Positions 4,442 through 59,060 are shown, numbered from the stretch's first letter. The stretch: 59,060 nt of DNA from Rhodothermales bacterium (GCA_047611125.1 JBLFXH010000002.1:1-59060); one strand, 5' to 3'. The notes: generated by a model from the sequence alone, not told the origin. Numbers and translations are program-made.

Positions 4442-4547
4442 CCTTCTGCCATTTTGTCACGATTCCCCGAACCCGTTTCGAGGAGGGACGTTATAGCGCG
4501 CAGGCCCCACGTTGAGAAGGGCCGCTGCCCAAAGAAAATCCCACCTG

Positions 4548-5978: not shown

Positions 5979-5979
5979 G

Positions 5980-7209
5980 ATGGATCGCGTCTCACTACAG
6001 GAACGATTCGGCATCATCGGCCGGTCCGAGGCTATTCGGCATGTGATCGACCGGGTGCGCCAGGTGGCCAAGACGGAGATCACAATCCTGGTCCAGGGTG
6101 AGAGTGGAACCGGGAAGGAGCTGATTGCGCAGGCGCTCCACCAGCTCTCTGAGCGGCGTCATAAGAAGCTCCAGATCGTCAATTGTGGTGCCATCCCGGA
6201 AGGCCTGATTGAGTCAGAACTTTTTGGAGCCGAGAAGGGCGCATACACAGGCTCTGTGGATCGCCGCGCCGGCTATTTCGAAGAGGCATCAGGGGGGACC
6301 ATCTTCCTGGACGAAATTGGAGAGATGCCGCTGACGGCGCAGGTTCGACTCCTTCGCGTCCTCGAAAATGGAGAGTTCAGCCGCGTGGGCAGCTCCAAGG
6401 TTCTCAAGGCGGACGTTCGCGTATTGGCGGCCACCAACAAGGATCTGGGCCGCGAAGTGCAGGCCGGCCGGTTCCGGGAGGACCTCTACTACCGCCTCTC
6501 CACTGTGATTATTCGCGTTCCTCCGCTTCGCGAGCGCAAGGAGGACATCCTTCAGCTGTTCGAGCATTTCCAGCACCGGTTCGCTCAGCAATACAACACC
6601 AGTTCGAACCAACTCAGTGATGAAGCGCGGCGTCTGCTGCTGAGGTATCGGTGGCCCGGGAATATCCGCGAGCTCCGCAATGTGGCGGAGCAGAGCGCTG
6701 TCCTTCTTGAGGGCGATGCCATCAGCGAAACAGAGTTGCGCTCTTTTCTCAGAGGGGTTTCGGTCGGACAGGACGGACTGATACCGGTGGTCTCGCCCGG
6801 GTCCGGCGAGAAGGAGCCGGACCGAGAGCGCGAACTCATCTACCGTGCATTACTCGAGATTCGCCTCGAAATGCGCGGCCTGAAAGACCAGATGTCTGCG
6901 CTCTTGGGGACGTTCCAGGGCAGTTCGAGCAAGGCCATGGTGGTGCACCGGGACTCGATTCGCCGCGAGAGTCAGGAAATGGTCGAGGACATTCCGTTCG
7001 AGATCGAGAACGATGCCGATCAGGATGCCAGTCGGTACGATGTCGATCCGCGGGACGAGCCGCTGCCTTCCCTCGAGGATGCCGAACGAAAGCTGATCGC
7101 CGAGGCTCTGGAGCGATTCGAGGGCAACCGTCGGCAAACGGCCAAGGCGATGGGTATCTCAGAGCGCACGCTGTACCGCAAGATCAAGGAGTTCGAGGAT
7201 GTTGAGTAG
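5980..7209 (+). CDS. Sigma-54-dependent transcriptional activator (AAA+ plus Fis-type HTH, no N-terminal sensory domain)
   Basis: Walker A GESGTGKE, a sigma-54 contact loop [15 protein letters not shown] (GAFTGA variant), GNIRELRN, and a C-terminal [23 protein letters not shown]. The AAA+ core begins about 12 aa after the start. Confidence 0.88.
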
Positions 7210-7726
7210 CCCGCGGCCTGGAATTCGATGGGGCAGCCACCTTCTTCTGGTGGCCATCTGCCTGACCCCGGTGTCGTGCTGGTTCTACAGCTTCAGCGGA
7301 GCCACCATCCCCAGCCACCTGTCCACCGTGGCTATTCCGCTTGCTGATGACCGGACGGTCAGCACCGTTTCTGGCCTGGACGAGCGCTTGACCCAGCTGT
7401 TCATCGAACGATTCGTGGGTCAAACCCGTCTGTCGCTGAGCACTTCGCAGCAAGAGGCGGACGTGGTTCTGCGCTCCACCATCCAGAATTATCAGAACCA
7501 GCCCACCTCTGTAGGCGGTGACGAAAGGGCCACTCGCAACCGGGTGACCATCTCGGTGAATGTGGTTTACTTGGATTCGAAGCGGAATCAGGAAATTCTC
7601 TCGCGGACGTTCTCCGGGTTCGAGGAGTACGACCCACTCGACCCGGACCTCGAGGAGGAGGCCGCGCTCGCGGCGCTGGAAAAAATAGCGGATGACGTCT
7701 TCACGGCGGCCACCTCCAACTGGTAG
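7199..7726 (+). CDS. lptE: LPS-assembly lipoprotein LptE
   Basis: Signal peptide then ...VSCWFYSFSGATIP, a central NRVTISVNVVY and a C-terminal ...DDVFTAATSNW. This matches the Bacteroidota LptE pattern (C-x-YxFxG, RLxISVxV, terminal W). The start overlaps the activator stop. Confidence 0.78.
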   Translation: MLSSPRPGIRWGSHLLLVAICLTPVSCWFYSFSGATIPSHLSTVAIPLADDRTVSTVSGLDERLTQLFIERFVGQTRLSLSTSQQEADVVLRSTIQNYQNQPTSVGGDERATRNRVTISVNVVYLDSKRNQEILSRTFSGFEEYDPLDPDLEEEAALAALEKIADDVFTAATSNW

Positions 7727-9228
7727 TGGCCACGCTCTACGCGATTGCCCTGGGCGTGATTACGCTCTATGGACTCAATCATTTCTGGTTGTCTTGGCGA
7801 TTTGCGCGGACCCGGAGTCTGATTGACGGCCCGGTCCCGGAGTACTGCCCGGCCGCAGAGCCCAAAGAATGGCCTATGGTCACGGTCCAGATCCCGCTCT
7901 ACAACGAAGCCCTGGTGGCCGATCGGGTGATTGCGGCCTGTGCGCGTCTGGACTATCCCAAGGGCAAGCTCGAGATCCAGGTACTCGACGACTCGACCGA
8001 TGAAACGGTCAGAGTCACAGCGGACGCGGTCCGCTTCTGGCGCCGGCAGGGGATCAACATGGTGCACCTGCATCGGACGCACCGGCGTGGTTACAAGGCG
8101 GGGGCCCTGGCAGACGGACTCCGGGTGGCTCGCGGCCAGTTCATTGCCATGTTCGATGCCGATTTCGTTCCACCACGCAATTTCTTGCGGACGCTCATAG
8201 GACGGTTTCAGACGGACGAGGTGGGTCTGGTTCAGGCTCGCTGGGGGCACCTGAATGACGGCGCAGGTCTCCTGACTCGCCTCCAGGGATTTGGCCTGGA
8301 TGCTCATTTTGCTATGGAGCAGGAATCGAGAACCGCCTCCGGCTACCCAGCGGGGTTCAACGGAACGGCCGGTATCTGGCGACGGGCCTGTATCGACGAC
8401 GCGGGCGGCTGGAGTTCGGACACCCTCACCGAAGACCTGGATCTGAGCTACCGAGCACAATTGAAAGGCTGGCGCATGGTCTACGTCACCGACTTGGTCG
8501 TTCCAGCCGAGTTGCCTGTGGAGATGGGCGGATTCCGAGCGCAGCAGCATCGATGGACCAAGGGTGCCGTCCAGACCGCCATGAAGCTGGCTGGATCCGT
8601 GGCCCGAACTGATCAGTCGCTCGGATTTCGCACCCAGGGGCTCATTCATCTCACTGCGAATGCAGGCTTCCCTTTTGTCTTCACTGTGGCGCTTCTGCAC
8701 GCCCCACTGGCCTACCAGACGGCATTGGGCACCGGACCGGGCGAGGCGTACTTCGCGCTCCTGGGGGTGGGTATCGCGGGTTTCGGCGGATTCTTTGCTG
8801 CGCATCTGACCGCCCAAAGGGCCCTCTATCCCGACTGGGGGCGACGGATGTGGAGGTTTCCCATTCTGCTCGCCGCCTCGCTCGGGATGGCCCTTTCGAA
8901 TACGCTGGCTGTGATGGAGGCGCTGGCCCGGAAGTCCTCGCCCTTCGTTCGGACTCCCAAGTTCAACAGCGTCGATACGTCCGAGGCCTCAGCCTGGTGG
9001 CGCTCCTCCTATGCCGGGTCCAGCCTGAAGCCCGCCGTTTTCCTGGAGGCGCTGATGGCCCTGTACACCACCGCAGGATTGGCCGTTTTGATCTCTTCGG
9101 GTGCTTGGGGAGCCGTCCCCTTCCAACTGGTGTTCGCTCTCGGATTCTGGCTGGTATTCGGTTTTTCGGTCCGGGACGCGGGCCTGACGCGCCGAGCGCT
9201 TCCTCTACGCAGTCGAGCGGCCAAATAA
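7726..9228 (+). CDS. Processive family-2 glycosyltransferase, cellulose-synthase/CslA-like, multi-pass membrane
   Basis: VTVQIPLYNE, LDDSTD, FDADF (DxD), TEDLDLS (TED) and QQHRW (QxxRW) are present, with TM helices at both ends. The GTG start overlaps the lptE stop by 1 nt. Confidence 0.85.
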   Translation: MATLYAIALGVITLYGLNHFWLSWRFARTRSLIDGPVPEYCPAAEPKEWPMVTVQIPLYNEALVADRVIAACARLDYPKGKLEIQVLDDSTDETVRVTADAVRFWRRQGINMVHLHRTHRRGYKAGALADGLRVARGQFIAMFDADFVPPRNFLRTLIGRFQTDEVGLVQARWGHLNDGAGLLTRLQGFGLDAHFAMEQESRTASGYPAGFNGTAGIWRRACIDDAGGWSSDTLTEDLDLSYRAQLKGWRMVYVTDLVVPAELPVEMGGFRAQQHRWTKGAVQTAMKLAGSVARTDQSLGFRTQGLIHLTANAGFPFVFTVALLHAPLAYQTALGTGPGEAYFALLGVGIAGFGGFFAAHLTAQRALYPDWGRRMWRFPILLAASLGMALSNTLAVMEALARKSSPFVRTPKFNSVDTSEASAWWRSSYAGSSLKPAVFLEALMALYTTAGLAVLISSGAWGAVPFQLVFALGFWLVFGFSVRDAGLTRRALPLRSRAAK

Positions 9229-9256
9229 ACGTATCTTACCCGTAGTATTCTCAGGA

Positions 9257-9853
9257 ATGACGGACTCGATGGCAAGACCAGATCTACGTGAACTAACCGA
9301 ATGGCTCGAGGAGGGGCGGGCTGCCGAGGTAGTTGCTGCACTCACCGGGCCTGTTGCCGAAGAACCCGGCCACGTGGCCTGCATCGTGGTTCTGGCGCGT
9401 GCGCTCGAGGCCTCGAGCAGACCCCTTGAGGCGCTTGCCCGCTGGAGGGCTGCGTATGCCCTCTGTCCGGACAGCCCGGTAGTTCGGGATGAGTTGCGCC
9501 GGCTTGCTGCGTCAGTGGCCTGCCAGGCGGCCGCCGGAACTCGAACGAGTCGCGCCCTGGAAGCCGCGGACGAGTCGCTTCGCAATGACGAGCCGTATCA
9601 CGAATTGGACGAGTTGATCAAAGAGTTGGAGACCGCGCGCATCATCCCGGATCCCAAAGTCGAGCCCGTCGACTCGTCCCGGCTGGCGCCCGATGTTGAG
9701 GATGTTGTTTCCGAAACCCTTGCCAAGATCTACGCGAACCAGAAGTATTACGAGGAAGCGGCCAAGGTCTACGATAAGCTGGCCGTCCAGCAGAAAGACC
9801 GGAAGGAGGAGTTCAACCAGAAGGCTTCCGACATCCGCCAACGGGCGTTCTAG
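9257..9853 (+). CDS. Hypothetical protein with TPR-like helical ends
   Basis: High GC3 in this frame. A helical N-terminal region, an acidic middle and a C-terminal ETLAKIYANQKYYEEAAKVYDKLAV (TPR-like). No family assignment. Confidence 0.55.
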   Translation: MTDSMARPDLRELTEWLEEGRAAEVVAALTGPVAEEPGHVACIVVLARALEASSRPLEALARWRAAYALCPDSPVVRDELRRLAASVACQAAAGTRTSRALEAADESLRNDEPYHELDELIKELETARIIPDPKVEPVDSSRLAPDVEDVVSETLAKIYANQKYYEEAAKVYDKLAVQQKDRKEEFNQKASDIRQRAF

Positions 9854-47045: not shown

Positions 47046-47566
47046 GGCAAGAGTTGGATTGTCTCCGGGTGGAATCGGACGTCACTGTGATCCGGTGAGG
47101 CCGCGGTGCGGTCGGGAATCATGTCATCAAGGTTCGGGCCAATCTCGTTTCGATTATGGCTAATCGTCCAAATCAGATCAAAAACGATGATGTCTGTCAA
47201 GAGATCGAGGTGCTGAAGGCCGGTACGCAATCATTGTGAGACCGAGAGTGAGCAGGCCAGGGCGGCCGTCTGCAAGAGTCTCTGCAAGCACCCTGCCGTT
47301 CTCTCTTTGATAGTGTGTCCCCTATAGGTAAGGAGTCGAACGTCCCACCCGGAATGACCGCCTTCTACAAGGTTGTCGGGCATCAGGACTTCAGAATTCC
47401 CAGCATCCGCCGATCCAATCCATTGCATGCGGCCTCCAATCTGGGGACCGTAGTGTCGATACCGATCTCAAACAGGGATTGGGCTAACCGATATCAAGGC
47501 AATGAATAGAGCCAAATCACACGAAATGACCTGTTTTCGCCGATCCGAAAGGACTCCGCGAATCTC

Positions 47567-47582
47567 GGCATACCGTTTGATG
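47567..47582 (+). promoter_or_regulatory. Candidate -24/-12-like element GGCAT-N5-TTGATG, 47 nt upstream of the first EPS-locus ATG
   Basis: Direct reading. It shares its pattern and exact distance to the ATG with the element at 54388-54403. The -12 reads TTGA rather than the consensus TTGC. Confidence 0.25.
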
Positions 47583-47629
47583 AAGGAGATTCCGGCTCCA
47601 AGCTCCATCGAATTCTCTGCCTGCTCATT

Positions 47630-48886
47630 ATGAAAGACACGCCTGCAAGCATGTCCGCATTCGCCGCAATGCTCTCTTCCGGTATCGATCCAATCGATGA
47701 GGAATGGGGCGGACTCTACCGCGGAGGTGCATACCTCGCCTTCGGACGCGCCGCTACCGGCCGCGGCCTCCTAACACTGCGCTATGCGCACACTGGTGTT
47801 CAGGGTGGCGAGCGCTGCCTGTTTATCGCATCGGATCGTCCCAAGGACCTGGTTATCCAGGCCGCCTCAATCGGGTTCGACCTGAAGCAGGCGCAACAGG
47901 ATAGCCTGATCCGCCTGATGCGGATTCCGCCGATGATGAATCCCCAGGCAATGGGCGATGACTCGGTGGCTAAGGCCCTCTGGGATCTCGTGACCATTAT
48001 CCGGAAGCAGCGTCCAGACCGCCTGGTCATCAACGACTTCATGCCGTTCGTGATGTTCAGGTCTTTCGACCGCTTCCGCATGGAGTTCATCCGGATGCTG
48101 GAGCAGATTGACTCCCTTGACACCACTGTGGTTGTTGCGCTGCCGGAGCCGGCCAACCCCCAGTCCCGGCGCGTGATTGACTTCATGGCAGGCCAAATGA
48201 CTGGCGCCGTGCATATCGAGTCGGCCGACGAGGAACTGTCGAGCACAGAGCGTCGCCTCACGCTCATCCCACACATTGGCCAGATCAAGCGGCAGGTTGT
48301 CCGCCATTGGGATCTCGCCGAGATTGTTATGACGCCGGGACAGGCGCCCCCGATTACCGAGGTTGTTCGCGAGAGCCCGCCGGTTGTCCCAGCTGCCCGC
48401 AAGTTTCCGCACGTTGCCCCTGATATGACGGCACCGGCACCGGCACCGGCAGCGCCGGCGCCCGAGAAGGAAGACGCACTCGAGCGCTATTCAGACCGCG
48501 GTCCCTTCCGCGATCGCCTCCAGAACTTCTTCGTCAACCGGGAGGACGAGAACAGTCCCTTCCTCCTGTTGGCCATGCGCATGGACCAGACCTCTGAGTC
48601 CGGTCCGGTAGACTTCGAATTCATTATCGACCTGGTGGCAGACAGCCTTCGCCCTCAGGACGACATGCTCATCAGCGCGATCAACGAACGCCTCGTTGTG
48701 CTGCTTGCTGAGAGCAAGCCTGAGGAAGCCCAGGGCTTCTTCGCTAGGCTGAAAAACCGACTGCGCGCAGACGCACCCAAGCAGGCAGATTATCTACTGC
48801 ATGCCGTGTCTGCGATCGTGGTGCCCGACGGCCGTCCATTTCAAAGTGCAGATGAGTTTCTCACTTATGCGATGGATGAGGCCTAA
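47630..48886 (+). CDS. KaiC/RecA-like domain (degenerate Walker A) fused to a degenerate GGDEF domain retaining an RxxD I-site; predicted c-di-GMP receptor/regulator
   Basis: The N-domain SGIDPIDEEWGGLYRGGAYLAFGRAATGRGLLTL...CLFIASD...RLVINDF follows the COG0467 KaiC/RadA pattern, but GxxGxGKT is replaced by GRAATGRG. A Pro/Ala linker (APAPAPAAPAP) follows. In the C-domain ...FLLLAMRMD...SLRPQDDMLISAINERLVVLLAES...AVSAIVV... aligns to GGDEF domains, with RPQD five residues before AINER in the GG(D/E)EF position. Confidence 0.7.
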   Translation: MKDTPASMSAFAAMLSSGIDPIDEEWGGLYRGGAYLAFGRAATGRGLLTLRYAHTGVQGGERCLFIASDRPKDLVIQAASIGFDLKQAQQDSLIRLMRIPPMMNPQAMGDDSVAKALWDLVTIIRKQRPDRLVINDFMPFVMFRSFDRFRMEFIRMLEQIDSLDTTVVVALPEPANPQSRRVIDFMAGQMTGAVHIESADEELSSTERRLTLIPHIGQIKRQVVRHWDLAEIVMTPGQAPPITEVVRESPPVVPAARKFPHVAPDMTAPAPAPAAPAPEKEDALERYSDRGPFRDRLQNFFVNREDENSPFLLLAMRMDQTSESGPVDFEFIIDLVADSLRPQDDMLISAINERLVVLLAESKPEEAQGFFARLKNRLRADAPKQADYLLHAVSAIVVPDGRPFQSADEFLTYAMDEA

Positions 48887-48901
48887 TCCCGACCCAACGC
48901 C

Positions 48902-51900
48902 ATGACCTCATACAGGTACCTATTTGCCAGTCTGGTCGCCGCGATTATCGTGGCGACCATGCCTGTTTCTCTATACGCCCAGGATGTTGCGGCCCAGGCG
49001 AGAGCGGAAGCTGCCATTGAGCAGGGGCGCTATGATGAGGCCGTCACCATTCTCGATACGGTCATCCAACCCGGGAGCATCGATACCCGAGCCTTGCTCC
49101 TGAGGGCGAAGGCTCATCGTTTGATGGGGGACGAGCCATCAGCTGAAACCGACTTCCGTGCGGTTCTCGAGGTCGACCCCGCCAACCGGGAGGCGCTGGA
49201 CGGACTGCAAGAAATTCGTGGCCAGCGGTCACCCAATACGGGCAACGTGAATAGTCTCCGGCGACTGGTAGAGGCGAACCCAGACAATCTCTCCTTCCAG
49301 ATTCGCTACGCCGACGCCCTCTTCGATGGGCAGTACTACCGGGAGGCAGCCGATCAGTACAACATCTATCTGGATCAGACCCAGGGCACGCCCGATATCG
49401 TCCAGCGCTATCTGATCGCCATCGCCAACTATCAGGGTGACAACTCTTTGGGCGAGTCCGTGGCGACCGAGTACGTGGAGATCTATACCACGGACGACGA
49501 CCTCTGGATGCGTCTGGGCTTCTTTCGCCTCTGGCAGGGCAACTACGCCGGGGCACTCGAGGCTTGCGAACAGTCTCTGCTCTTGAATCCTTCCAATAGG
49601 GAGACACAGGATTGTACGCTTCAGGCCCGCAATCCAGACGTGATTGCACGCTCATCCACGTTCCCAATCGACGTGGCTTTCCGGGAAGTCCGGGCGAACC
49701 CCGATGACGATGCCCGTCGCTACCAGTTGATAGACCTCCTGATAGAGGCCGAGCGCTATTTCGAGGCTCGTCAGCAGTTGGATGTGCTTGCCGATCGCCG
49801 CGGCGGCGAAGCGCAATGGAAGAGCCGTGACCAGGCCGTGACGCGAGGCCTTGCCGCCTCTCCGCAGCCATTGTCAACGTTCCCGATTGACGTCAAGACG
49901 CGGGAGTTGATGGCCAAGCCGAGCAAGGACGAAACACGCTTTGAGCTAGTTGATCTGCTTGTAACGGATGATCGCTACTTCGAGGCTCGTCAGAATCTGG
50001 AGTACCTGCGTTCCGACCACAGAAACACTGATCGCTGGAAGACGCGTTGGGCTACGGTCTCAACCGCTCTAGCAAGGTTGGATGACGGCGGCCGGTCCCG
50101 CTTGTCAACCGACACTATCGATGTGCTGACCCGCCAGCTAATGTCGAATCCAAGTCAGGACGACAAACGCTTTGAACTGGTCGGTCTCCTACTGGAGAAT
50201 CGCCGGTACAACGAGGGCGATCAGAATCTTGACTACCTGGCCCCGCGTCATCGCCGGACCAACCAGTGGCGCCGACTCAATCAGCGCGCCGAGGCAGGGT
50301 TGCGCTCATTGGAACGCCGAGGCCGAGCCCCTGCGGTCCAGGAGTTCATCGTGGATCGTCTGTATCGCGAGCTGAGGTCCACTCCGAACGATGACGAGAA
50401 GCGATTCCGTCTAGTTACCGAGCTGATCAAGTACAACCGATTCGCAGAGGGTTGGGACCAGCTGAGGACCCTCCAGGCCGCACATGGCGAGGGCCGGCGC
50501 TGGCTTTCCGCCTTTGTCTCGGTGGATGACGGACTGGTTCGCGCCGGTACGCCCATATTCGCGATTGACCGTCTAACCTATCGCCTGGCCTTCGACCCTT
50601 CAGACTCGAGCGTTCGGCTCCAACTGGTGGATGCCTTGGCCGAGACCGGCCGCGTCTCCGAGGCGCTCGACATCCTGACCGATGAGCGGTATGCCGACCC
50701 CGGCAATCCCGGATACCAGAATCGACTGCGGACCATCGCAGAGATGCGTCTGGCCATTGCCCAAGAGGGTGTCATGGAACTGGAGGATGTCCTCGTGGCA
50801 AATCCCAGTAACCGGGAAGCACTTAGGGAGATCGCCAATCACTATCTCGTGCTTGGCCGCGATGAGGAAGCCTTCGAGACCTACGCCGCACTGCTGAGTG
50901 TAGAGCCGGGCAATGATGCACTTCGCGCTGACTTTGCCGAGGCCCTGCAGTTTCGCGGCTACTACGACCAGGCGCTGCTCCAGGCGGACTACCTCCTGGA
51001 CCGCCAGCCCGATAACACGGCCTTCCAGCGGCTGTTCGTCCTGGCCTCCATCTCTCAGGGAGATCTGGACCAGTTGGGAGAGGCATACGCTGAGAATCTG
51101 ATGGGCACCACGGGTCAAACTGATCCCGAACTGCTTCTGGTGCTGGCCGAGTACAGACTGCTCCGCGGAGACGTGGAGATGGCCGACAACTATGTTCGCG
51201 CAGCCGATGCGCTGAACGACTCCCGATTTGCCACGCGCATCTCGACGGTCGCTCAGTTGGTGGCCCGCGAGCGCATCCGTTCCGCCGAGGCCGACAGGAT
51301 CGAGCTTCTTAACGCCGCTCGCAGGCTTGCGGCGTCACGCAACTTCAACCAGTCTATTGACGCTTACGAGGACTACTTCGAGGCACAGGGACGCCGCTCG
51401 CGTTCCGAGCTGAAGGAGTTGGCTCAGGTGCATTCGGCTGCCGCCGATTACGTTTCGGCCCTGTCCATTCTTAACGCTCTGCAGGAACTGGCGTGGGAAT
51501 ACGATGTGGCCAAAGAAATTGCCCGCAACCAGTACTACCGGGACGACTACTCCGGCGCTCTCCGGACGCTTGAGGATCTCGCAACCCGCAACCCGCGTGA
51601 CTACGAAGTTCGTTTCCTGCAGGCAGACGCCTACCGGGAATTGGGTCTATTTACGCAGGCCGAGGCGGTATATGCCGACGCCCAGCGTCTGGCCGAGGCC
51701 TCCGAAGCAGTTGGAGAGCGGTCCGCTGCCCTGGACCTCAGCATGCGCCAGAGCCTGGCGCAGAGTGGCGAATGGAAGGGTCTCGAGTTTGCGGGCGTCA
51801 TCGTTCCCGTGGCCGAGGCCGTGTTGGCCCGCGGCGGCGGCACGCGATATGATCGTTGGGCACAAGGCATGCAGACGCATTTGATCATCCCTTGGGGATA

Positions 51901-52768
51901 CGGAACGGTATTCATGGCTGGCGTGAACTCGCACTTTATCGAGGGCACGCGGCAGTTGATTCCCGGCTCGGCAGAAACGGCCGGCCGCGTCAACCAGATT
52001 TTCGCAGCAGGCTATCGTGATCTCACGCCGCCGGAAGTCCAGTACAACCGCGCCTCGTATACGAACAGGCTGTCGGGCCAGGTTGGCATCTTTGACTATG
52101 AAGGCGGCCGGACCGTAGGCTTTGGTGGCATCAGCTACCTGCGCCAGGATCCGGGCGTGTACCGCGGTTCAGTGGGCGTTCGGGTTACCGAAGGTGCCAT
52201 CGATCTCTGGTCACCCGCAGGTGGCGAATACAACCTGCGGCTGACGCAGTTGAACTTCCGCGGTTGGGTGCCCAGCGTGATGCCGGATTCGACTCTGCGT
52301 CTGCACGGCAACGTCTCCTTCAATGTGGTGCGTGACAACTTCGGGACACCCGGCACGACCAACGACACCAATTTCGGGACCAACATCCTGCTTGAGGCCT
52401 CCTACAAAGTGGTGCCCAATACCTGGTTCGGGATGACCTACTACCAGATTGACTACCGCTCCCGGACGGACCTCTACTTCTCGCCGCGCAACTACTCCAG
52501 CTACGACATCTTCCTGGAGCACGAGAAGAACATCCCCTTCAAATCCTACATCCGTATTCGAGGCGCAATGGGCGTCGTAGCCCGCTCCTCGGGCTTCGTA
52601 TCTCGAAGCATCGAAATGGATTGGATCAAGCGGCTAGCCGCCAACTGGACATTCAACATGTCCGGCTCGCTGGGACAGTCCACTCGTTCGCTGGGATCAG
52701 GAGCGACCAGCTTCATCGATCAATACAACACATTCACGTTGTCTGCAGCGCTCTCCTGGACCCTTTAG
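48902..52768 (+). CDS. Outer-membrane exopolysaccharide export protein: long TPR scaffold plus C-terminal beta-barrel (PgaA/PelB/BcsC-like)
   Basis: Signal peptide ...MPVSLYAQD, about 950 aa of TPR-like helical repeats, and a last ~330 aa with alternating beta-strand pattern ending ...FTLSAALSWTL. The gene sits directly upstream of the GT2 synthase. Confidence 0.75.
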   Translation: MTSYRYLFASLVAAIIVATMPVSLYAQDVAAQARAEAAIEQGRYDEAVTILDTVIQPGSIDTRALLLRAKAHRLMGDEPSAETDFRAVLEVDPANREALDGLQEIRGQRSPNTGNVNSLRRLVEANPDNLSFQIRYADALFDGQYYREAADQYNIYLDQTQGTPDIVQRYLIAIANYQGDNSLGESVATEYVEIYTTDDDLWMRLGFFRLWQGNYAGALEACEQSLLLNPSNRETQDCTLQARNPDVIARSSTFPIDVAFREVRANPDDDARRYQLIDLLIEAERYFEARQQLDVLADRRGGEAQWKSRDQAVTRGLAASPQPLSTFPIDVKTRELMAKPSKDETRFELVDLLVTDDRYFEARQNLEYLRSDHRNTDRWKTRWATVSTALARLDDGGRSRLSTDTIDVLTRQLMSNPSQDDKRFELVGLLLENRRYNEGDQNLDYLAPRHRRTNQWRRLNQRAEAGLRSLERRGRAPAVQEFIVDRLYRELRSTPNDDEKRFRLVTELIKYNRFAEGWDQLRTLQAAHGEGRRWLSAFVSVDDGLVRAGTPIFAIDRLTYRLAFDPSDSSVRLQLVDALAETGRVSEALDILTDERYADPGNPGYQNRLRTIAEMRLAIAQEGVMELEDVLVANPSNREALREIANHYLVLGRDEEAFETYAALLSVEPGNDALRADFAEALQFRGYYDQALLQADYLLDRQPDNTAFQRLFVLASISQGDLDQLGEAYAENLMGTTGQTDPELLLVLAEYRLLRGDVEMADNYVRAADALNDSRFATRISTVAQLVARERIRSAEADRIELLNAARRLAASRNFNQSIDAYEDYFEAQGRRSRSELKELAQVHSAAADYVSALSILNALQELAWEYDVAKEIARNQYYRDDYSGALRTLEDLATRNPRDYEVRFLQADAYRELGLFTQAEAVYADAQRLAEASEAVGERSAALDLSMRQSLAQSGEWKGLEFAGVIVPVAEAVLARGGGTRYDRWAQGMQTHLIIPWGYGTVFMAGVNSHFIEGTRQLIPGSAETAGRVNQIFAAGYRDLTPPEVQYNRASYTNRLSGQVGIFDYEGGRTVGFGGISYLRQDPGVYRGSVGVRVTEGAIDLWSPAGGEYNLRLTQLNFRGWVPSVMPDSTLRLHGNVSFNVVRDNFGTPGTTNDTNFGTNILLEASYKVVPNTWFGMTYYQIDYRSRTDLYFSPRNYSSYDIFLEHEKNIPFKSYIRIRGAMGVVARSSGFVSRSIEMDWIKRLAANWTFNMSGSLGQSTRSLGSGATSFIDQYNTFTLSAALSWTL
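49655..50765 (+). repeat. Five tandem divergent 71-79-aa protein repeats inside the TPR scaffold gene
   Basis: Units begin STFPIDVAFREVRANPDDDARRYQLIDLL.., STFPIDVKTRELMAKPSKDETRFELVDLL.., STDTIDVLTRQLMSNPSQDDKRFELVGLL.., FIVDRLYRELRSTPNDDEKRFRLVTEL.., IFAIDRLTYRLAFDPSDSSVRLQLVDAL... The nucleotide periods are 219, 231, 237 and 213. Confidence 0.8.
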
Positions 52769-52798
52769 GGGCATCCCGGTAGCCAAACTGGTATAACC

Positions 52799-54289
52799 AT
52801 GGCCGACGAAACGAAAAACGAAAACCCGCCGGTAACTGCGCCGCCTGCCCAGAGAGATGAATCTCTGAGCCGCACGCAGTTCCAGCCCGTACGCAGTGCC
52901 GACGAGGGCATGCTTGGGCCGCGTGAGAACGAATCAGTTCTGGTGAGGCGCATCCTCATCTACGGATTCCTCTCGCTCGTCCTCTTCGGGATCATTTGGT
53001 TCTTTATGGAGGATCCAGGCGGATACCTGTCACGCTGGACCAATAGGCCGGTATCACTCTCTTGGAAAGGCCTGATTGTGTACTCGTCCATCGTGGCACT
53101 GGTGCTCTTCCTGGTGATCCTTCTGTTCCGGTACTTGAGCCTGATGAACATGGCGTACCTGAACACTACCAAGCACACCATTGAAGAGGGGCACGACCCC
53201 AACTTTCTGCCGCCGGTGTCCATCATTGTGCCGGCCTTCAATGAAGGCAAGCTGCTCCACTCAACGGTGGCCTCTCTGCTCGAGATGGACTATCCGCACT
53301 ACGAAATCCTGCTGGTGGATGACGGCTCAACCGATGACACCCGTCAGGTAGCCCGCGATCTGGTTGGGATCTACAGGCAGGGTACGGTCGAAGTGCGTCT
53401 GGTCGAGAAGTCCAATGGTGGCAAGGCCACAGCACTGAACGCCGGAATCCAGGTATCCCGTTATGACTACGTCCTGAATGTGGACGGCGATTCACAGCTT
53501 TCGCCCGATACCCTCCGGAAGACCATACGTCACTTTGTGGATCCGCGTCTCGGCGCCATCGCCGGGAACGTGAAGGTTCTCAACCGGGACAACGTCTGGA
53601 CGACCCTGCAGGCGCTAGAGTACGTGGAGGGCCTGAACATGGCCCGTTCCGCACAGTCCATCGTCAAGCTCGTGAACATCATCCCAGGTCCGCTGGGTCT
53701 GTTTCGCAAGCAGGCTATCGTGGATGCTGGCTGGTACAGCTCCGATACGTTCGCTGAGGATGCTGACATCACGCTGAAGATCATCCGTGCTGGATGGCGC
53801 GTGGAGTACGAGCCCGATGCCAAGTCCTACACGGAGGCGCCGGACAAAATTGTGGATCTGCTGAAGCAGCGGTACCGCTGGACGCGTGGAATCATCCAGG
53901 CCGTCCGCAAGCACCGCGATCTCTTCTTCAATCCCACAATCAACTTCGGTGGAACGATTGTGATGTGGTCGATGGCCTTTGAGGCCCTCATCTGGCCCAT
54001 CATGAACATCTTCGCCAACGCCTACTTCATTTTCATCGCGTTGGTCTTCGACATGAGTTACTACCTGGTCTATTGGTGGCTCAGTCTGACCATCCTGGAT
54101 CTCATTGCAGCGCTGTACTGCGTTGCTGTTGAGAAGGAAGAGGCACGTCTGGTCTTCTACTCGCTCTTCTATCGGCTCTTCTTCATCCTCATTGTGGACG
54201 TCTGTAAGACCTTCGCAACTGTCGAGGAATTCCTCGGCATCGGCATGAGCTGGGGCAAGCTGGAGCGCATCGGAAGCGGCTCGAAATAA
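52799..54289 (+). CDS. Processive GT2 exopolysaccharide synthase, PgaC/IcaA-like (poly-beta-1,6-GlcNAc synthase-like)
   Basis: VSIIVPAFNE, LVDDGSTDDT, NGGKATALNAG, NVDGDS (DxD), GAIAGNVKVLNR, FAEDADIT and QRYRWTRG (QxxRW) are present. There are 2 N-terminal and about 3-4 C-terminal TM helices. The central region aligns by eye to IcaA. Confidence 0.85.
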   Translation: MADETKNENPPVTAPPAQRDESLSRTQFQPVRSADEGMLGPRENESVLVRRILIYGFLSLVLFGIIWFFMEDPGGYLSRWTNRPVSLSWKGLIVYSSIVALVLFLVILLFRYLSLMNMAYLNTTKHTIEEGHDPNFLPPVSIIVPAFNEGKLLHSTVASLLEMDYPHYEILLVDDGSTDDTRQVARDLVGIYRQGTVEVRLVEKSNGGKATALNAGIQVSRYDYVLNVDGDSQLSPDTLRKTIRHFVDPRLGAIAGNVKVLNRDNVWTTLQALEYVEGLNMARSAQSIVKLVNIIPGPLGLFRKQAIVDAGWYSSDTFAEDADITLKIIRAGWRVEYEPDAKSYTEAPDKIVDLLKQRYRWTRGIIQAVRKHRDLFFNPTINFGGTIVMWSMAFEALIWPIMNIFANAYFIFIALVFDMSYYLVYWWLSLTILDLIAALYCVAVEKEEARLVFYSLFYRLFFILIVDVCKTFATVEEFLGIGMSWGKLERIGSGSK

Positions 54290-54387
54290 CAGAGAACGGG
54301 ATCTCAAAATGATCCCAGTTGCAAAATGAGACTGATTTTCAACTACAAAGTGCTCCAAACGGCTCAAAAAGGCCGGTCACCATTTTG

Positions 54388-54403
54388 GGCACAGTGCTTG
54401 ATG
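54388..54403 (+). promoter_or_regulatory. Candidate -24/-12-like element GGCAC-N5-TTGATG, 47 nt upstream of the ATG at 54451
   Basis: Direct reading inside the AT-richer 161-nt gap after the synthase gene. It has the same pattern and spacing as 47567-47582. Confidence 0.25.
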
Positions 54404-54450
54404 ATTGTCAGTCGAATTGAAACCCAAGTGCGCCCAAAGGTGCTACCAAC

Positions 54451-54882
54451 ATGGAACTAGTCCCGATTCTCTCGACAATCATCCTCGTAGGAACAATTGC
54501 CACGTTCATTCTCGCCGTGGCCGCCTACATCCTTTACAAGATTCGTGAGGGCAAAGCCCGTGAGTCGCACCAGCAGACCGGATACATGCAGCAGGAGCCG
54601 CACGTTCTGGTTGCTCCCGACCGCGGCCAGCAGCCCATGATCCAGCAGACGGCTCCGGCCCCTGCGTCGATGTACCAGCCGGCCCCTGGCCAGCAGGCTC
54701 AGCGTCAGCAGCTGCAGGCTCCTCAGCAGCAGGGTCAGAATCCCAATTCTCTCTTCTGGGAGTACACCGACGAAGGCTTCGTTCCGGTGAACCCGCAGCA
54801 GGAGCAGGTCCAGCCGCAACAGCAGCAGGCACCTCAGTCCCCGCAGCAGCCCCAGCAGGACGAAGGATACGCCTGGCTCTAG
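54451..54882 (+). CDS. Single-pass membrane protein with Gln/Pro-rich low-complexity tail
   Basis: TM helix LVPILSTIILVGTIATFILAVAAYILY followed by KIREGKAR (positive-inside rule, so the tail is predicted cytoplasmic). The tail is about 105 aa and dominated by Q and P (QQAQRQQLQAPQQQGQ..., QQEQVQPQQQQAPQSPQQPQQ), ending DEGYAWL. Confidence 0.6.
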   Translation: MELVPILSTIILVGTIATFILAVAAYILYKIREGKARESHQQTGYMQQEPHVLVAPDRGQQPMIQQTAPAPASMYQPAPGQQAQRQQLQAPQQQGQNPNSLFWEYTDEGFVPVNPQQEQVQPQQQQAPQSPQQPQQDEGYAWL

Positions 54883-54926
54883 GCTCTACCACTCCGTAAT
54901 CCACCTCCACCCCGACCACCGATACG

Positions 54927-57233
54927 ATGGCACTGCCTCGACTCGAAAGGATTAACACGCTCTGGTTCGTGACGCTCGGCGTCACCGCCTTGGCCGCCGC
55001 GATCCTGGTGTACATCCTCCTGCTGGAGTCCGCCCTGGGCGCCTTCAGCATCAAGGATGCCTCACCACTGGCGATTGGCGAGACGTCAAAGCCGAGCGTG
55101 GCACTCCTACAGAGTGACTACACTAAGCAGGTCCATCGTGAGCTGAACCTCCGCGACACCACGACCACGTGGGTTGACGAGACCCTTCTTTCATGGCGCG
55201 AGTTTCTCATCGAGAAAGAGCGTAAGATTTCCTTCAAAGACATCAGCGACCGTGAGCTGGAAGAAGGATCTCTGGAAGACTACGACGTCCTGATTCTGCC
55301 TTCTGTGAGGGCGATGTCAGATGTCCAGATCCAGCGTATCAAGGAGTTCATGCAGCGCGGTGGTAGTGTTCTGGCCACCTGGACCCCGGGCGTTTACCGT
55401 CCCGACGGATCCTGGCGTGGATGGAGCTTTGTGGAAGAGGCATTCGGATTGGAGTTCCAGGGATTCGTGGAGCGTGGCGTCGGTAACTATCGCGTCTACA
55501 CAGACACCTTCCCAGGCCACACGCCGGCCGGTATCTACTTCCCCGAGTACCTCGCAGACAACGAAGTCTCTGACCCCTTCGACGGGACTAGTTCCAGAGA
55601 CTTTGTTTTCCGCGAGACCCAGAGAAGTGAGGCGCGCTCGTCTGACTTCCCGCCGCTCCGCACCTACGAGTGGAACGACACACTGGGCACGCAACCGCCG
55701 ACCCGCGACTATGCTCGCGCCGAAATCGTGAACGCTCCTATGCGTAACACGTCGGGCGAGCTGACCTATCAGGACGCTGTCAAAGTGACCTACTTCACCT
55801 GGATTGGTGGAGACCCGACGGCCGAGATTCCCTATCCCCGGACGAACGCCGGTATCCGACGCTTCACACTTCGCGGTAACACGCCGCTGACGGCCAACGT
55901 GCCTTCGGGCTATCGCGTCAAGATTCAGGTCTACAACCCGGGCGTCAAGGTTCGGGTCACTGAGCCCGAGCGGACGCAGTCGGGCGGCTTCTGGTATGAC
56001 TTTGCCACCGATGACCTGGTGAGCACTGACGCTGTCGATGCCACAACAGGTGTCGCCTACGGCACCTATGGCGAAGGCCGCTTTGTCTACCTGGGCTTCC
56101 AGCGCAACGCCATGGGCGTCGGGCCGGATGATACAGAAGACTGGCTCCAGCTCGGCAAGGTGTTCGCCAACATGATGAACTACCTGCGCCGCAAGCCGGT
56201 GATCTGGGTTCATGACTGGCCGTATCCCTACAAGTCAGCCGGCATGATGACCGGTGTCGCCGAAGACAACACCCAGGCATTGGGACCAGTCGTCGAGATG
56301 CTGGAAAACGAAAATTTCCCCGGCACGTTCTTCGTGCAGCCGGAAAACTCCCAGGGCCAGTCGGCCCTCGTCAGTCGGATGTACGATCTGGGTGATGTCG
56401 GCGTCTACGACACGCTTCGGACCCGCAGTGACGGATCAACGGCTGTTCAGGCGCAACGTCTGCAGCGCCTACGCATTTCCTTGGAAGGTCTGGCCGGTGG
56501 CCGCCCGATCAAGGGATATCGCTCCACCGAGCGAGGCATGCTCAGCAACGAGACCATGGGTGGTCTGGTGGACGCTGGCGTCTATACCTACTTCATGCCT
56601 GACTCAATCGGTCGTCGTACGACGCCGAAGGTGATGGGCGAGCCCTTCGAGTCCCTCACCCGTATTGGCGTGACCACTCGGAGCGACAAAGATATTCTGG
56701 GTGGCGATGCCACCATCTCGATGGACTTGGCCTCAAGCCTGATTCAGGACGGCATCCGCCGGGCTGAATATGAAGGTGGCCTGTTCAATATGGTCTACTC
56801 TGGTGAGCTGTTGGGTCAGAACGTCGGCGTCCTCAGGGGCGTGGCAAGGACCCTGAAGAGTGGCAACTTCTGGAACGCCTCCGGCGACCAGATTGCCCAC
56901 TGGTGGAGGCTCCATGAGGGACTGAATGCTGACGTTGAGCAGCGGGGTCCATCTCGGATTTTCGTCCGGGTGTCGAATGACAACGGAGACATCGCGCAGA
57001 ACGCCTCCATCAGCATCGCGCTGGGACGCTCTGTCGAGTCTGTAAATATCCGCCCAGAGCTGATCAACATCTTTAAGGTGTTCGGCGAAGGAGAGGACAT
57101 TCCGTCCTACGAACTGCACGAGAACGGCACTGTGCTCGTGATGCCCATCACCGAGCTGAAGCCGCAGCAGTACCGGATCTTCCACATTGACCTCATCGGC
57201 CCTGAGACCGATCCGTTCCGCCAGGACCGCTAG
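54927..57233 (+). CDS. Membrane-anchored periplasmic protein: GATase1-like/GH42M-like motif plus CE4 (NodB)-like region with non-canonical catalytic motifs
   Basis: N-terminal TM LWFVTLGVTALAAAILVYILLL, then DYDVLILPSVRAMSDVQIQRIKEFMQRGGSVLATW. The later MMTGVAEDN...FPGTFFV...LGDVGVYDTL...KGYRSTERG lines up with the CE4 motifs TFDDG / ATFF / GHExGxH / RPPYG, but without the His pair. Paralogous to the next gene. Confidence 0.5.
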   Translation: MALPRLERINTLWFVTLGVTALAAAILVYILLLESALGAFSIKDASPLAIGETSKPSVALLQSDYTKQVHRELNLRDTTTTWVDETLLSWREFLIEKERKISFKDISDRELEEGSLEDYDVLILPSVRAMSDVQIQRIKEFMQRGGSVLATWTPGVYRPDGSWRGWSFVEEAFGLEFQGFVERGVGNYRVYTDTFPGHTPAGIYFPEYLADNEVSDPFDGTSSRDFVFRETQRSEARSSDFPPLRTYEWNDTLGTQPPTRDYARAEIVNAPMRNTSGELTYQDAVKVTYFTWIGGDPTAEIPYPRTNAGIRRFTLRGNTPLTANVPSGYRVKIQVYNPGVKVRVTEPERTQSGGFWYDFATDDLVSTDAVDATTGVAYGTYGEGRFVYLGFQRNAMGVGPDDTEDWLQLGKVFANMMNYLRRKPVIWVHDWPYPYKSAGMMTGVAEDNTQALGPVVEMLENENFPGTFFVQPENSQGQSALVSRMYDLGDVGVYDTLRTRSDGSTAVQAQRLQRLRISLEGLAGGRPIKGYRSTERGMLSNETMGGLVDAGVYTYFMPDSIGRRTTPKVMGEPFESLTRIGVTTRSDKDILGGDATISMDLASSLIQDGIRRAEYEGGLFNMVYSGELLGQNVGVLRGVARTLKSGNFWNASGDQIAHWWRLHEGLNADVEQRGPSRIFVRVSNDNGDIAQNASISIALGRSVESVNIRPELINIFKVFGEGEDIPSYELHENGTVLVMPITELKPQQYRIFHIDLIGPETDPFRQDR

Positions 57234-57237
57234 AACT

Positions 57238-59060
57238 ATGACAGAGATCAAACACATCGTGCGTCTCCTCACTCTGGCTGTCATCATTGTAGCTGGACTG
57301 GGGATCACCCGCAACGCAAGCGCGCAGGCCGTCGACGCGACCCTGACGCTCGCCAAGCCAGCTCCGGGCGTGAGCCACACGGTCGGCAACCTCTGGGACA
57401 ATGACGAGCCCCGCGTGGCTCTACTGGTCTCCGAGCAGGCCAAAGGCATTTCGACGCTGGAGTCCTCCCGCGTCCGGGACGCCGTGTACTTCTGGGAGGT
57501 TTTCCTTCTGGGACTTCAGCTACCGTACGTGACCGTCAACGATTCCGAAGTTGGCAAGGGCCTCAGCCACAAGGACTACGATCTGTTGATCATGCCCGCT
57601 GGCGATGCGCTTTCAGGCCGCCAACGCAAGGAGATTCTGAAATTCGTGGATCGCGGTGGCTCGGTCATCGCCTCCGGTTCGCTGGGTCGATACGACGAGC
57701 GCGGCCGTACGGTGGAAGACTCCTTCTTCTCCGATCTGCTGGGTGCTGAGCTGGTGACGCGAGTCCCACAGCAGCCCTTTGGCCTCCTACACAGTGTAGA
57801 CGGTGCGACTCCAGTAGGCCTCGGAGTTCCTCCCGGATTCCGGTTGAACCTGGCTTCAATGCCCGGTCTCACCGCGGCGCGCCCTGTGACCGGTACCCCG
57901 CTTGGTACTCCCTACTCCTACAGTGGTCGGGACGATGGCCTCTTCTCTGAGCTCTCCCTGATGATGCTCAACAAGAAGGGCGACGGCATGGCACTGTGGA
58001 CCCGCTTTGGTCCTCAGGATGTCTCCCGCGAACGCGCTCATCAGGCCGCCTACCAGCGGATGATGGCCAATGCAATTGCTCTCTTGACCGGCGCCCGCAG
58101 CGTATCGGTTCGTCCTTGGCCCGAGCTCGCACAATCGGCCCTCGCCATAGCGGCGCTGCCGACGGTCGGGATGGCCCCACTACAGTACATGGCTGGCTGG
58201 GAAGAATTCCTGAGTCTGCTACAAACCCAGCGCGTGCCTGCCACCTTCTTCCTGACCACCGACGAAGCCCTTGGCTTTCCCGATCTCGTGGCCGCCATGG
58301 GTCAACTCGGAGAAGTGGCCATCGCCGCCGAGTCAGACAACGTCCTTCTGGGTCAGCCCCTTGAGGTTCAAGCCGGCCGTATGTCCCGCGCAAGCGGATC
58401 CCTCGGCGGTACCCAGGTTGGTCTCTATCCGCCGGGTGGCTACCACGATGGCAACACGCTACGTGCTGCCGTCGAAGGCGGCTACAACTATCTCCTGATG
58501 CCCAACGGGCAGAGCCTTGCGCCAACCGCAGTTCGCTGGTGGGAAGACGTGGACTACCGGGCGCTGCAAGCCTCGGCCACTGAGCAGGTGGATCTCGCAT
58601 TCCTGCGGTCCCGTCGTCGTCAGACTCGCGAGCCGCGTCGTGTGGCGGCCGTCGCGCCGACACCAGCAGTCCTGATGCCCCTGGATAACGGAATGAAGGA
58701 CTATGTCACCCGGTTCCACGAAGTGGAGCGTGCCGGTGGAGTCTACATCCTGCCTTTCCATCCCGAGTCCGAGCGCTCCGGGTCCGCCAAGACCGGCCAA
58801 CTGCGTGACGTGATTGGTCTGGCCCAAGAGCGCGGTACCTGGATGGCCACCGTAAATGAAGTCTTACGCTGGTGGACCCTTCGGAATTCAGTTTCCGTGG
58901 ATGTGGCCGATTCCCATAATGACTACTTCGTGATAGATGTCAACAACCAGGGCGGCGAGGCCATCTCGGGTCTGACACTCGAACTCAGTCTCGGCGACGT
59001 AGGCTTCAACTCGCTCGAAGGTGATCTCACCGGCGACCTCGTAGCCGGCGACTTACCCGG
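57238..59060 (+). CDS. Secreted paralogue of the preceding protein (GATase1-like plus CE4-like), 3' end beyond the window
   Basis: Not in the ORF track because there is no stop. The ATG at 57238 is 4 nt after the previous stop, and hand translation stays open to the window end (607 codons). Signal peptide MTEIKHIVRLLTLAVIIVAGLGITRNASAQ; DYDLLIMPAGDALSGRQRKEILKFVDRGGSVIASG; VPATFFLTTDE...LGEVAIAAESDN...LYPPGGY; ATVNEVLRWW. Confidence 0.6.
   Translation, partial: MTEIKHIVRLLTLAVIIVAGLGITRNASAQAVDATLTLAKPAPGVSHTVGNLWDNDEPRVALLVSEQAKGISTLESSRVRDAVYFWEVFLLGLQLPYVTVNDSEVGKGLSHKDYDLLIMPAGDALSGRQRKEILKFVDRGGSVIASGSLGRYDERGRTVEDSFFSDLLGAELVTRVPQQPFGLLHSVDGATPVGLGVPPGFRLNLASMPGLTAARPVTGTPLGTPYSYSGRDDGLFSELSLMMLNKKGDGMALWTRFGPQDVSRERAHQAAYQRMMANAIALLTGARSVSVRPWPELAQSALAIAALPTVGMAPLQYMAGWEEFLSLLQTQRVPATFFLTTDEALGFPDLVAAMGQLGEVAIAAESDNVLLGQPLEVQAGRMSRASGSLGGTQVGLYPPGGYHDGNTLRAAVEGGYNYLLMPNGQSLAPTAVRWWEDVDYRALQASATEQVDLAFLRSRRRQTREPRRVAAVAPTPAVLMPLDNGMKDYVTRFHEVERAGGVYILPFHPESERSGSAKTGQLRDVIGLAQERGTWMATVNEVLRWWTLRNSVSVDVADSHNDYFVIDVNNQGGEAISGLTLELSLGDVGFNSLEGDLTGDLVAGDLP

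Follow-up and report, generated by a model that had tools for sequence, protein, structure and literature searches.

A conserved gene cluster of Rhodothermales and Ignavibacteria for a probable synthase-dependent exopolysaccharide system

To our knowledge, synthase-dependent secretion of exopolysaccharides (EPS), as in the cellulose (Bcs), poly-N-acetylglucosamine (PNAG; Pga/Ica), Pel, alginate (Alg) and Nfr systems, has been described almost exclusively in Proteobacteria and Firmicutes. The hallmark of Pga, Bcs, Pel, Alg and Nfr is a GT2 glycosyltransferase with multiple transmembrane (TM) segments and a QxxRW motif, paired with a protein of more than 1100 amino acids (aa) made up of tetratricopeptide repeats (TPR) and a porin. 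Here we analyze a locus of six genes, named g1 to g6, that lies at the end of a 59,060-nucleotide (nt) stretch from Rhodothermales bacterium (GCA_047611125.1 JBLFXH010000002.1:1-59060). This whole stretch is called the window, and its coordinates are used throughout. The locus is very likely a conserved operon for polysaccharide synthesis and export, and literature searches returned no description of such a system. A preliminary description of the window, which placed the locus in a Bacteroidota-like genome, had likewise known of no characterized system of this type in that group, and a systematic census of synthase-dependent operons is silent in its main text on Bacteroidetes, Ignavibacteria and Rhodothermus.

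The locus and its described counterparts

The ORF list and translations show six co-directional open reading frames (ORFs) separated by short gaps, running from 47630 to the end of the window:

g1, 47630-48886, plus strand, 418 aa: KaiC/RecA-like domain (aa 13-228), proline-rich disordered linker (236-279) and degenerate GGDEF-like domain (283-416)
g2, 48902-52768, plus strand, 1288 aa: TPR protein
g2 C-terminal domain, aa 955-1288, 51764-52765, plus strand, 334 aa: putative outer-membrane beta-barrel porin
g3, 52799-54289, plus strand, 496 aa: membrane GT2 synthase
g4, 54451-54882, plus strand, 143 aa: small single-pass membrane protein
g5, 54927-57233, plus strand, 768 aa: TM helix (11-37), GH42M/GATase1-like alpha/beta domain with a beta-rich insert (58-420), CE4/NodB-fold barrel (425-665, nt 56199-56921) and beta-sandwich (666-757)
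g6, 57238 to beyond 59060, plus strand, 607 aa present, about 22 codons being cut off by the window edge: paralogue of g5

The spacer 5' of g1 (47046-47629, 584 bp) has a GC content of 0.54, compared with about 0.60 in the genes. Six co-directional genes after a 584-bp AT-richer spacer are what the preliminary description had reported, and its coordinates and gene descriptions agree with our ORFs and GC values. It had also supposed that the locus probably continues past 59060. This is ruled out by the relatives, close and distant, in which g6 is 623-648 aa long and the final gene of the row, and the genes beyond are convergent. In one of these loci (L009), the gene after g6 lies on the opposite strand and belongs to the PIG-L family. 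The window operon therefore lacks only those last codons of g6.

Domain and homology searches bear out the earlier view that the gene set fits synthase-dependent EPS secretion and yet is unlike pga, pel, bcs and ica. As Pga, Bcs, Pel, Alg and Nfr are defined, the system belongs to none of them. The synthase, g3, is the only clear homologue of a characterized protein, as had been claimed. Its matches are Glyco_tranf_2_3 (2e-33), PgaC_IcaA (5e-58, the best in NCBIfam), NodC (4.5e-36) and, weakly, MdoH. The closest characterized homologue is PgaC, with 31% identity to the E. coli protein over 260 aa of the catalytic domain (3e-40), followed by BcsA (22%) and NfrB (E-value of only 1e-3). The motifs expected of a processive membrane GT2 of the PgaC, IcaA, NodC, BcsA or HAS type, that is, D, DxD, (T)ED and Q(R/Q)xRW, are present as DDGSTD174, DGD229, ED320 and QRYRW357. 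They are flanked by TM segments at aa 52-70 and 92-110 and by three or four more after aa 398, a topology like the 2+3 arrangement of PgaC. Based on these motifs and on the TM layout, g3 would be a processive, membrane-translocating synthase. For the other genes, BLASTP and hhalign comparisons of g2, g4, g5 and g6 with PgaA/B/D, BcsB/C/F and NfrA/YbcH gave no more than weak TPR matches.

PgaC, IcaA and NodC all use UDP-GlcNAc (GlcNAc, N-acetylglucosamine). Since they are the nearest relatives of g3, a beta-linked N-acetylhexosamine polymer is our best guess for the product, at about even chances. It counts against this assignment that the 31% identity between g3 and PgaC is its sole ground.

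The locus might also be read as a divergent pga (PNAG) operon, with g3 as PgaC, g2 as PgaA, g4 as PgaD, g5 and g6 as active PgaB-like deacetylases and partly deacetylated poly-beta-1,6-GlcNAc as the product. The synthase match would fit, as would the presence of a TPR protein with a C-terminal porin, of a small membrane protein right after the synthase and of periplasmic CE4-fold proteins. Nevertheless, g3 reaches only 197 bits against the 422.3-bit cut-off of the PgaC/IcaA equivalog family (TIGR03937), and no similarity of g2, g4, g5 or g6 to PgaA, PgaD or PgaB was detectable. Moreover, g4 has one TM helix whereas PgaD has two, g5 and g6 are devoid of the catalytic and metal-binding Asp-His-His site of CE4 enzymes, g1 has no counterpart in pga and the gene order is another one. 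We thus hold a pga operon to be improbable.

Likenesses to the remaining systems are also partial. Regarding Bcs, the synthase is PgaC-like and there is no BcsA, BcsB, BcsQ, BcsR or BcsG; a Pfam scan found no PilZ domain in g3. The absence of a recognizable PgaD, PilZ domain or BcsB, noted before, is confirmed by sequence comparison and Pfam. The Pel system offers a degenerate-GGDEF I-site receptor, PelD, comparable with g1, a very long TPR-plus-porin protein, PelB, comparable with g2, and an alpha/beta, CE4 and beta-sandwich protein, PelA, comparable with g5. The differences are that Pel polymerization depends on the GT4 enzyme PelF with PelG and PelE instead of a membrane GT2, that PelC is missing here, that PelD is membrane-bound and carries a GAF domain, and that in PelA the CE4 site is active and a GH166 hydrolase domain is present. 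NfrAB-YbcH shares the combination of a GT2, a TPR/outer-membrane protein and a periplasmic accessory protein, but beyond the weak g3-NfrB match there is no similarity to NfrA or YbcH other than TPR. Additionally, NfrB carries its own MshEN domain for cyclic di-GMP (c-di-GMP).

Putative exporter and periplasmic proteins

The g2 protein starts with a hydrophobic, signal-like segment ending in LYA-QD, followed by about 900 residues of TPR repeats that match many TPR families. The PgaA model PGA_TPR_OMP matches weakly, and only over the TPR part. The last 334 aa have a porin-like composition (G 12%, aromatics 13.5%, S/T/N 21.6%, L/A/E 17%), and their beta/alpha hydrophobic-moment ratio of 1.15 falls within the 1.12-1.18 of the PgaA, BcsC and NfrA barrels and not within the 0.88-0.95 of TPR regions. 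We infer from composition and periodicity that this domain is an outer-membrane barrel. A point against it is that the domain has no sequence match to any chain in the PDB or to the E. coli PgaA, BcsC and NfrA barrels. A protein database search with the C-terminal fragment returned two proteins only.

Within the TPR region, aa 254-627 are made up of five tandem repeats of about 73-78 aa each, with the unit FPIDV..R.L...P.DD..RF.LVDLL...RYFEA. Two of these repeats (aa 327-478, nt 49880-50335) are missing in the 1136-1144-aa orthologues of three relatives (L008-L010), indicating that the number of g2 repeats varies by lineage.

The g5 and g6 proteins are paralogues (BLASTP 4e-13 for the N-terminal domain and 1e-9 for the C-terminal part). 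The N-terminal TM anchor of g5 is conserved, and g6 has a signal peptide followed by GH42M-like and CE4-like domains. An AlphaFold2 model of g5 (pLDDT, predicted local distance difference test, 83.7; pTM, predicted template-modeling score, 0.75) shows a NodB (beta/alpha) barrel at aa 425-665. In Foldseek searches it matched 3rxz (5.8e-10, TM-score on target 0.69), 1z7a and 3cl6 (PuuE), and further domains B and C of GH42 beta-galactosidases (about 1e-7), many CE4 deacetylases (about 1e-6) and the CE4 pseudoenzyme BA3943. In the case of g6, Polysacc_deac_1 scores 22.7 bits, just below its cut-off of 23.1.

A CE4 fold in two paralogous periplasmic proteins agrees with the preliminary description, which had taken both for polymer modifiers. 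Their role as deacetylases is doubtful. At the positions of CE4 motif 1 (TFDD) and motif 2 (H(S/T)xxH), no conserved Asp or His is present in g5, g6 or their Ignavibacteria homologues. The TFDD position reads MMTGVAED in g5 and IAALPTVG in g6, and the HxxxH position reads GVYDTLR and IAAESDN, respectively. Of the CE4 motifs, g6 keeps only YPPGG (similar to motif 3). What the family conserves instead is DWP before strand 1, [PT]DS[IL]xxR, EGGLY and a WW pair. Comparison of the g5 family with PgaB by hhalign gave a probability of 1.4%, and no GH153-like domain was detected.

As the Asp-His-His site is absent, a canonical metal-dependent deacetylase is unlikely, and we lean slightly toward g5 and g6 being non-catalytic. 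By analogy, we favor a role in binding the polymer and escorting it between the synthase and the TPR array. Such a logic would be comparable to that of BcsB, which likewise has flavodoxin-like domains, beta-sandwich domains and a TM anchor. Both proteins may still have some non-canonical catalytic activity.

A protein search with g5 found only hypothetical proteins labelled Rhodothermales or Bacteroidota, and genome scans added Ignavibacteria. The relatives are nearly always named "hypothetical protein", with two isolated exceptions named automatically after domains.

The KaiC-like protein and the small membrane protein

The N-terminal domain of g1 matches KaiC both in sequence (Pfam PF06745, 1.6e-15; KaiC in the PDB, 1e-19) and in predicted fold (AlphaFold2 model, pLDDT 83.8; Foldseek against KaiC, 7s65, 5e-14, root-mean-square deviation of 2.8 over 219 columns), which supports a RecA-like fold on both counts. 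Its P-loop reads GRAATGRG, with Arg in place of the Lys and Gly in place of the Thr of the canonical Walker A, GxxxxGK[ST]. The form G-R-A-[AS]-[ST]-G-R-G is present in the window g1 and in all 48 aligned g1 sequences, and the position of the catalytic Glu pair (EE) of KaiC is occupied by S-D. Ignavibacterium album (L084, 3821-5086) has a canonical Walker A, GERKTGKT, most Ignavibacteria (L048 and others) have G.RKSGRT, and Rhodothermales have GRAASGRG. Across these orthologues, the Lys and Thr of the P-loop are lost step by step. To judge from these residues, the KaiC-like domain of g1 is probably ATPase-dead.

The linker that follows (48335-48466) is rich in Pro, Gln and Ala, is about 40 residues long in some homologues and exceeds 300 in others, and is predicted to be disordered (pLDDT <50).

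The C-terminal domain (aa 283-416) has a predicted topology of beta-alpha-beta-beta-alpha-beta-alpha. An hhalign comparison with the GGDEF domains of E. coli DgcT, DgcZ and DgcC was colinear over 138 of 145 columns (E-value of 0.0016 in one comparison, at low probability). The turn equivalent to GG[DE]EF reads A-I-N-E-R, so no cyclase activity is expected. Five residues before this turn, at the position of the I-site according to the hhalign register, is R341-P-Q-D344. D344 is invariant in the 48 aligned g1 sequences, and R341 is present in 90% or more of them. Rhodothermales g1 thus keeps the RxxD of an I-site and has lost the GG[DE]EF of the active site, a pattern read from sequence only.

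Degenerate GGDEF domains that bind c-di-GMP are found in PelD. The design of g1 comes closer to that of BcsE from the type II cellulose system of E. coli, in which a predicted RecA-like (KaiC-like) N-domain has lost its Walker A, a GGDEF* domain binds c-di-GMP via RxxD, and BcsF, a tiny single-pass protein encoded alongside, recruits BcsE to the membrane (PMC7439463). In g1, a degraded Walker A and a dead GGDEF-like domain with RxxD are combined in the same way, and the locus also encodes a tiny single-pass protein, g4, whose tail is predicted to lie in the cytoplasm. We propose that g1 is a BcsE-like sensor or scaffold, the likeness being one of design. In g1 a disordered linker replaces the REC* domain of BcsE. 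As no sequence homology was found, g1 would work like BcsE without being a member of its family.

A reading in which the locus is an EPS machine and g1 is no c-di-GMP receptor has to be weighed here. In that case, g1 would act either as a scaffold that needs no nucleotide or as a KaiC-like regulator that binds ATP, with its GGDEF-like domain serving protein contacts only. Several observations favor it and weigh against a sensor. In Ignavibacteria orthologues, (D/E)KKDK stands in the place of RxxD and the Arg is replaced, which means that c-di-GMP sensing would not be family-wide. The canonical Walker A of I. album suggests an ATP-dependent ancestor, and Rhodocaloribacter litoris has a g1 without adjoining synthase genes. 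The window g1 matches GGDEF_2 weakly, and the Pfam matches of the C-domain over 23 members (GGDEF_2 in 19, GGDEF in 12 and PelD_GGDEF in 5) are all sub-threshold. A profile of the C-domain run against 1.84 billion representatives matched 160 clusters; among the 150 of these that were listed, the domain was always C-terminal in the architecture of the g1 family itself, with no bridge to canonical GGDEF proteins. Finally, comparing the g1 family with E. coli BcsE by hhalign gave an E-value of 0.19-0.24, that is, no homology.

On the other hand, the conservation of R341 and D344 and their I-site spacing from the GGDEF-equivalent turn speak for a receptor, as does the binding of c-di-GMP by PelD. 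The same design also binds c-di-GMP in BcsE (PMC7439463). On balance, c-di-GMP sensing by g1 in Rhodothermales appears somewhat favored, and a g1 that is no receptor rather unlikely. The second-messenger receptor of the preliminary description is plausible for Rhodothermales, the only group in which RxxD is conserved; the Ignavibacteria orthologues do not keep it.

A PDB profile search with the C-domain gave chance-level matches only, and among the matches listed for the full g1 model in Foldseek there was only KaiC. Among the C-domain matches listed, the full-length proteins have about 400-700 aa, and the shorter entries looked like fragments. Names in the source records are generic or automatic ("hypothetical protein", "KaiC/GvpD/RAD55 family RecA-like ATPase", "archaellum biogenesis ATPase FlaH").

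The g4 gene invariably follows g3 in the mapped loci. Its protein has one TM helix (aa 10-28) and a Q/P-rich low-complexity tail, which would be cytoplasmic given the basic residues after the helix (positive-inside). The TM region, MEL[VI]PILSTIILV[GA]TI[AS]TF[IL]LA[VI][AG]AYILYK[IV]RE, hardly differs between Rhodothermales and Ignavibacteria. Such conservation suggests tight packing on another membrane protein, most simply g3. At its end the tail carries a conserved motif, F[WLM][EK]YT[DS]EG[FY]V (FWEYTDEGFV in the window), and a terminal Trp; g1 may dock at this motif. No family in Pfam or NCBIfam matched g4, and no similarity to PgaD or BcsF was found. By analogy with BcsF or PgaD, we propose that g4 is a partner of the synthase or a tether.

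Gene order, promoter-like elements and the proposed system

A profile of the g5 family, built from a 16-sequence alignment, was scanned over a species-representative genome collection and found 231 genome loci with a g5 relative. We mapped gene order by comparing the six window proteins with six-frame ORFs of the best 80 of the 231 loci and of relatives' loci retrieved separately. The order of the six genes given in the preliminary description recurs in both groups of relatives. It is g1-g2-g3-g4-g5-g6 in nearly all Rhodothermales loci with enough flank, and g1-g2-g3-g4-g5 in Ignavibacteria, including Ignavibacterium album and Melioribacter roseus (typical E-values of about 1e-40 for g1 and g2, 1e-170 for g3, 1e-13 for g4 and 1e-85 for g5). 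Most Ignavibacteria have a single g5/g6-like gene, and a second paralogue is present in seven loci (L046, L049, L059, L073, L076, L080 and L088). An identical gene order in dozens of genomes of two phyla is not expected by chance. The operon is carried by hundreds of genomes of Rhodothermales and Ignavibacteria, which come from marine, saline and hot-spring settings, from soil and from wastewater.

Two arrangements weigh against a single unit of six genes. Five loci of one lineage of Rhodothermales metagenome-assembled genomes (L027, L030, L034, L039 and L040) have g3-g4-g5-g6 with no g1-g2 upstream; in a genome of the same kind (L007), g1 adjoins g2 at a separate place. In Rhodocaloribacter litoris (L006, CP076718.1, 10001-12325), g1 is kept and none of g2-g6 adjoins it. 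This g1 is followed by a convergent PIG-L gene, the one that follows g6 in L009 (21469 onward), which suggests either a deletion of g2-g6 or an independent role of g1. Judging from the separated genes of that lineage and from the solitary g1 of R. litoris, the operon behaves as two modules, g1-g2 and g3-g6, and g1 can outlive the rest.

Some loci show further particularities. The g2 of L007 is fragmented, probably by assembly frameshifts, and in L035 g3 comes directly after g1, with no g2 between them. In five Ignavibacteria loci (L051, L056, L067, L073 and L088), one or two extra ORFs that resemble the KaiC-like N-domain of g1 immediately precede it in a tandem arrangement; they may be partners for hetero-oligomeric rings.

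On the 5' side of the window locus, the minus strand encodes an aldehyde dehydrogenase and a PQQ_2 beta-propeller protein that carries Big_7 domains, and the same neighbors are found in relatives. This setting could be taken to mean that g3 makes an envelope glycan (a periplasmic glucan, a lipid-linked glycan or a polymer anchored in the outer membrane) and that g2, g5 and g6 serve envelope biogenesis. The syntenic surroundings are conserved and core-like, with EF-P, AccBC and GuaA in relatives, inheritance appears to be vertical across two phyla, and QxxRW GT2s also make osmoregulated glucans, MdoH being among the weak matches of g3. The best GT2 matches, however, are synthases of secreted polymers, and the pairing of a multi-TM QxxRW GT2 with so large a TPR-plus-porin protein (>1100 aa) typifies systems that secrete their polymer. 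An envelope glycan is accordingly very improbable as the product, and we retain the synthesis and export of a secreted polysaccharide.

Two elements resembling sigma-54 promoters accompany the genes:

GGCATACCGTTTG, 47567-47579, plus strand: sigma-54-like -24/-12 element, 63 nt 5' of the g1 ATG
GGCACAGTGCTTG, 54388-54400, plus strand: sigma-54-like -24/-12 element, 63 nt 5' of the g4 ATG, in the 161-bp g3-g4 spacer

In an alignment of the regions upstream of g1, the GGCA..TTTG columns are invariant and the remainder is 51% identical. GGCA[CT]-N5-TTG occurs at a fixed distance 5' of g1 in 45 of 54 loci of Rhodothermales and Ignavibacteria, with a background of 0.047 per 400 nt, and the solitary g1 of R. 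litoris also has such an element. Similarly, TTxGGCAC-N5-TTG is invariant in the g3-g4 spacer, which is otherwise 55% identical. The element is found 59-76 nt 5' of g4 in 27 Rhodothermales loci (background of 0.014 per 250 nt) and in none of the Ignavibacteria loci, where the g3-g4 spacer is short.

The window contains a sigma-54 activator gene (5980-7209; Sigma54_activat, AAA lid and HTH_8, no receiver domain), indicating that the host uses sigma-54. It lies 40 kb from the locus, and no link between them is established. Both elements fit TGGCAC-N5-TTGC except for the C at -12, which varies among loci and speaks against a promoter, and the number of motifs in the window alone is not significant (3 observed against 2.4 expected). 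Taken as sequence patterns, the two elements are probably sigma-54 promoters. An Rfam scan of the whole window found no family at threshold, and thus no known riboswitch, c-di-GMP types included. The two conserved elements, as well as the BcsE/BcsF-like designs of g1 and g4, go beyond the preliminary description.

The activator gene is part of a row at 4512-9853, in which it follows a MiaB-like radical-SAM gene and precedes an LptE-like gene. After these come the genes for a second membrane GT2, of 500 aa (7726-9228), and for a small TPR protein (9257-9853); no link of this row to the locus is established.

Taken together, we consider the following mechanism fairly likely. In the inner membrane, g3 would polymerize sugar from a UDP-sugar and thread the polymer across, most plausibly a beta-linked N-acetylhexosamine such as GlcNAc. 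The g4 protein would pack on the synthase via its conserved TM helix and expose a cytoplasmic tail with a short conserved motif, on which g1 may dock. As a cytoplasmic regulator or scaffold, g1 would combine a probably ATPase-dead RecA/KaiC-like domain with a catalytically dead GGDEF-like domain and, in Rhodothermales, would probably sense c-di-GMP through its RxxD I-site. In the periplasm, the membrane-anchored g5 and the soluble g6, with a CE4 fold and no metal site, would more likely bind and escort the polymer, or else carry out non-canonical chemistry. The polymer would then be taken by the long TPR array of g2 and released through its C-terminal outer-membrane barrel. Transcription would start from two sigma-54-type promoters, before g1 and before g4.

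The general logic of such a system is unsurprising, and its accessory proteins are families without a characterized member. As a tentative proposal, somewhat short of even chances, the locus may represent a distinct and ancient family of synthase-dependent EPS systems of Rhodothermota and Ignavibacteriota. It would consist of a PgaC-like GT2 and four accessory families without characterized members, all under sigma-54: a BcsE-like sensor with pseudo-ATPase and pseudo-cyclase domains, a single-pass tether of extreme sequence conservation, a pair of pseudo-CE4 escorts in a BcsB-like role that do not modify the polymer, and a new porin family. If this is true, the regulatory logic of BcsE and BcsF arose independently of, or far earlier than, the enterobacterial cellulose system.

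The locus is worth experimental work. It would provide a second, independent example of a regulator made of a dead RecA-like and a dead GGDEF domain, and a case of strictly conserved CE4 domains without a metal site. It would also lend itself to comparing the ways in which different periplasmic parts connect a GT2 synthase with a TPR porin of the outer membrane. In the Rhodothermales and Ignavibacteria that carry it, this operon may be a main biofilm matrix system.

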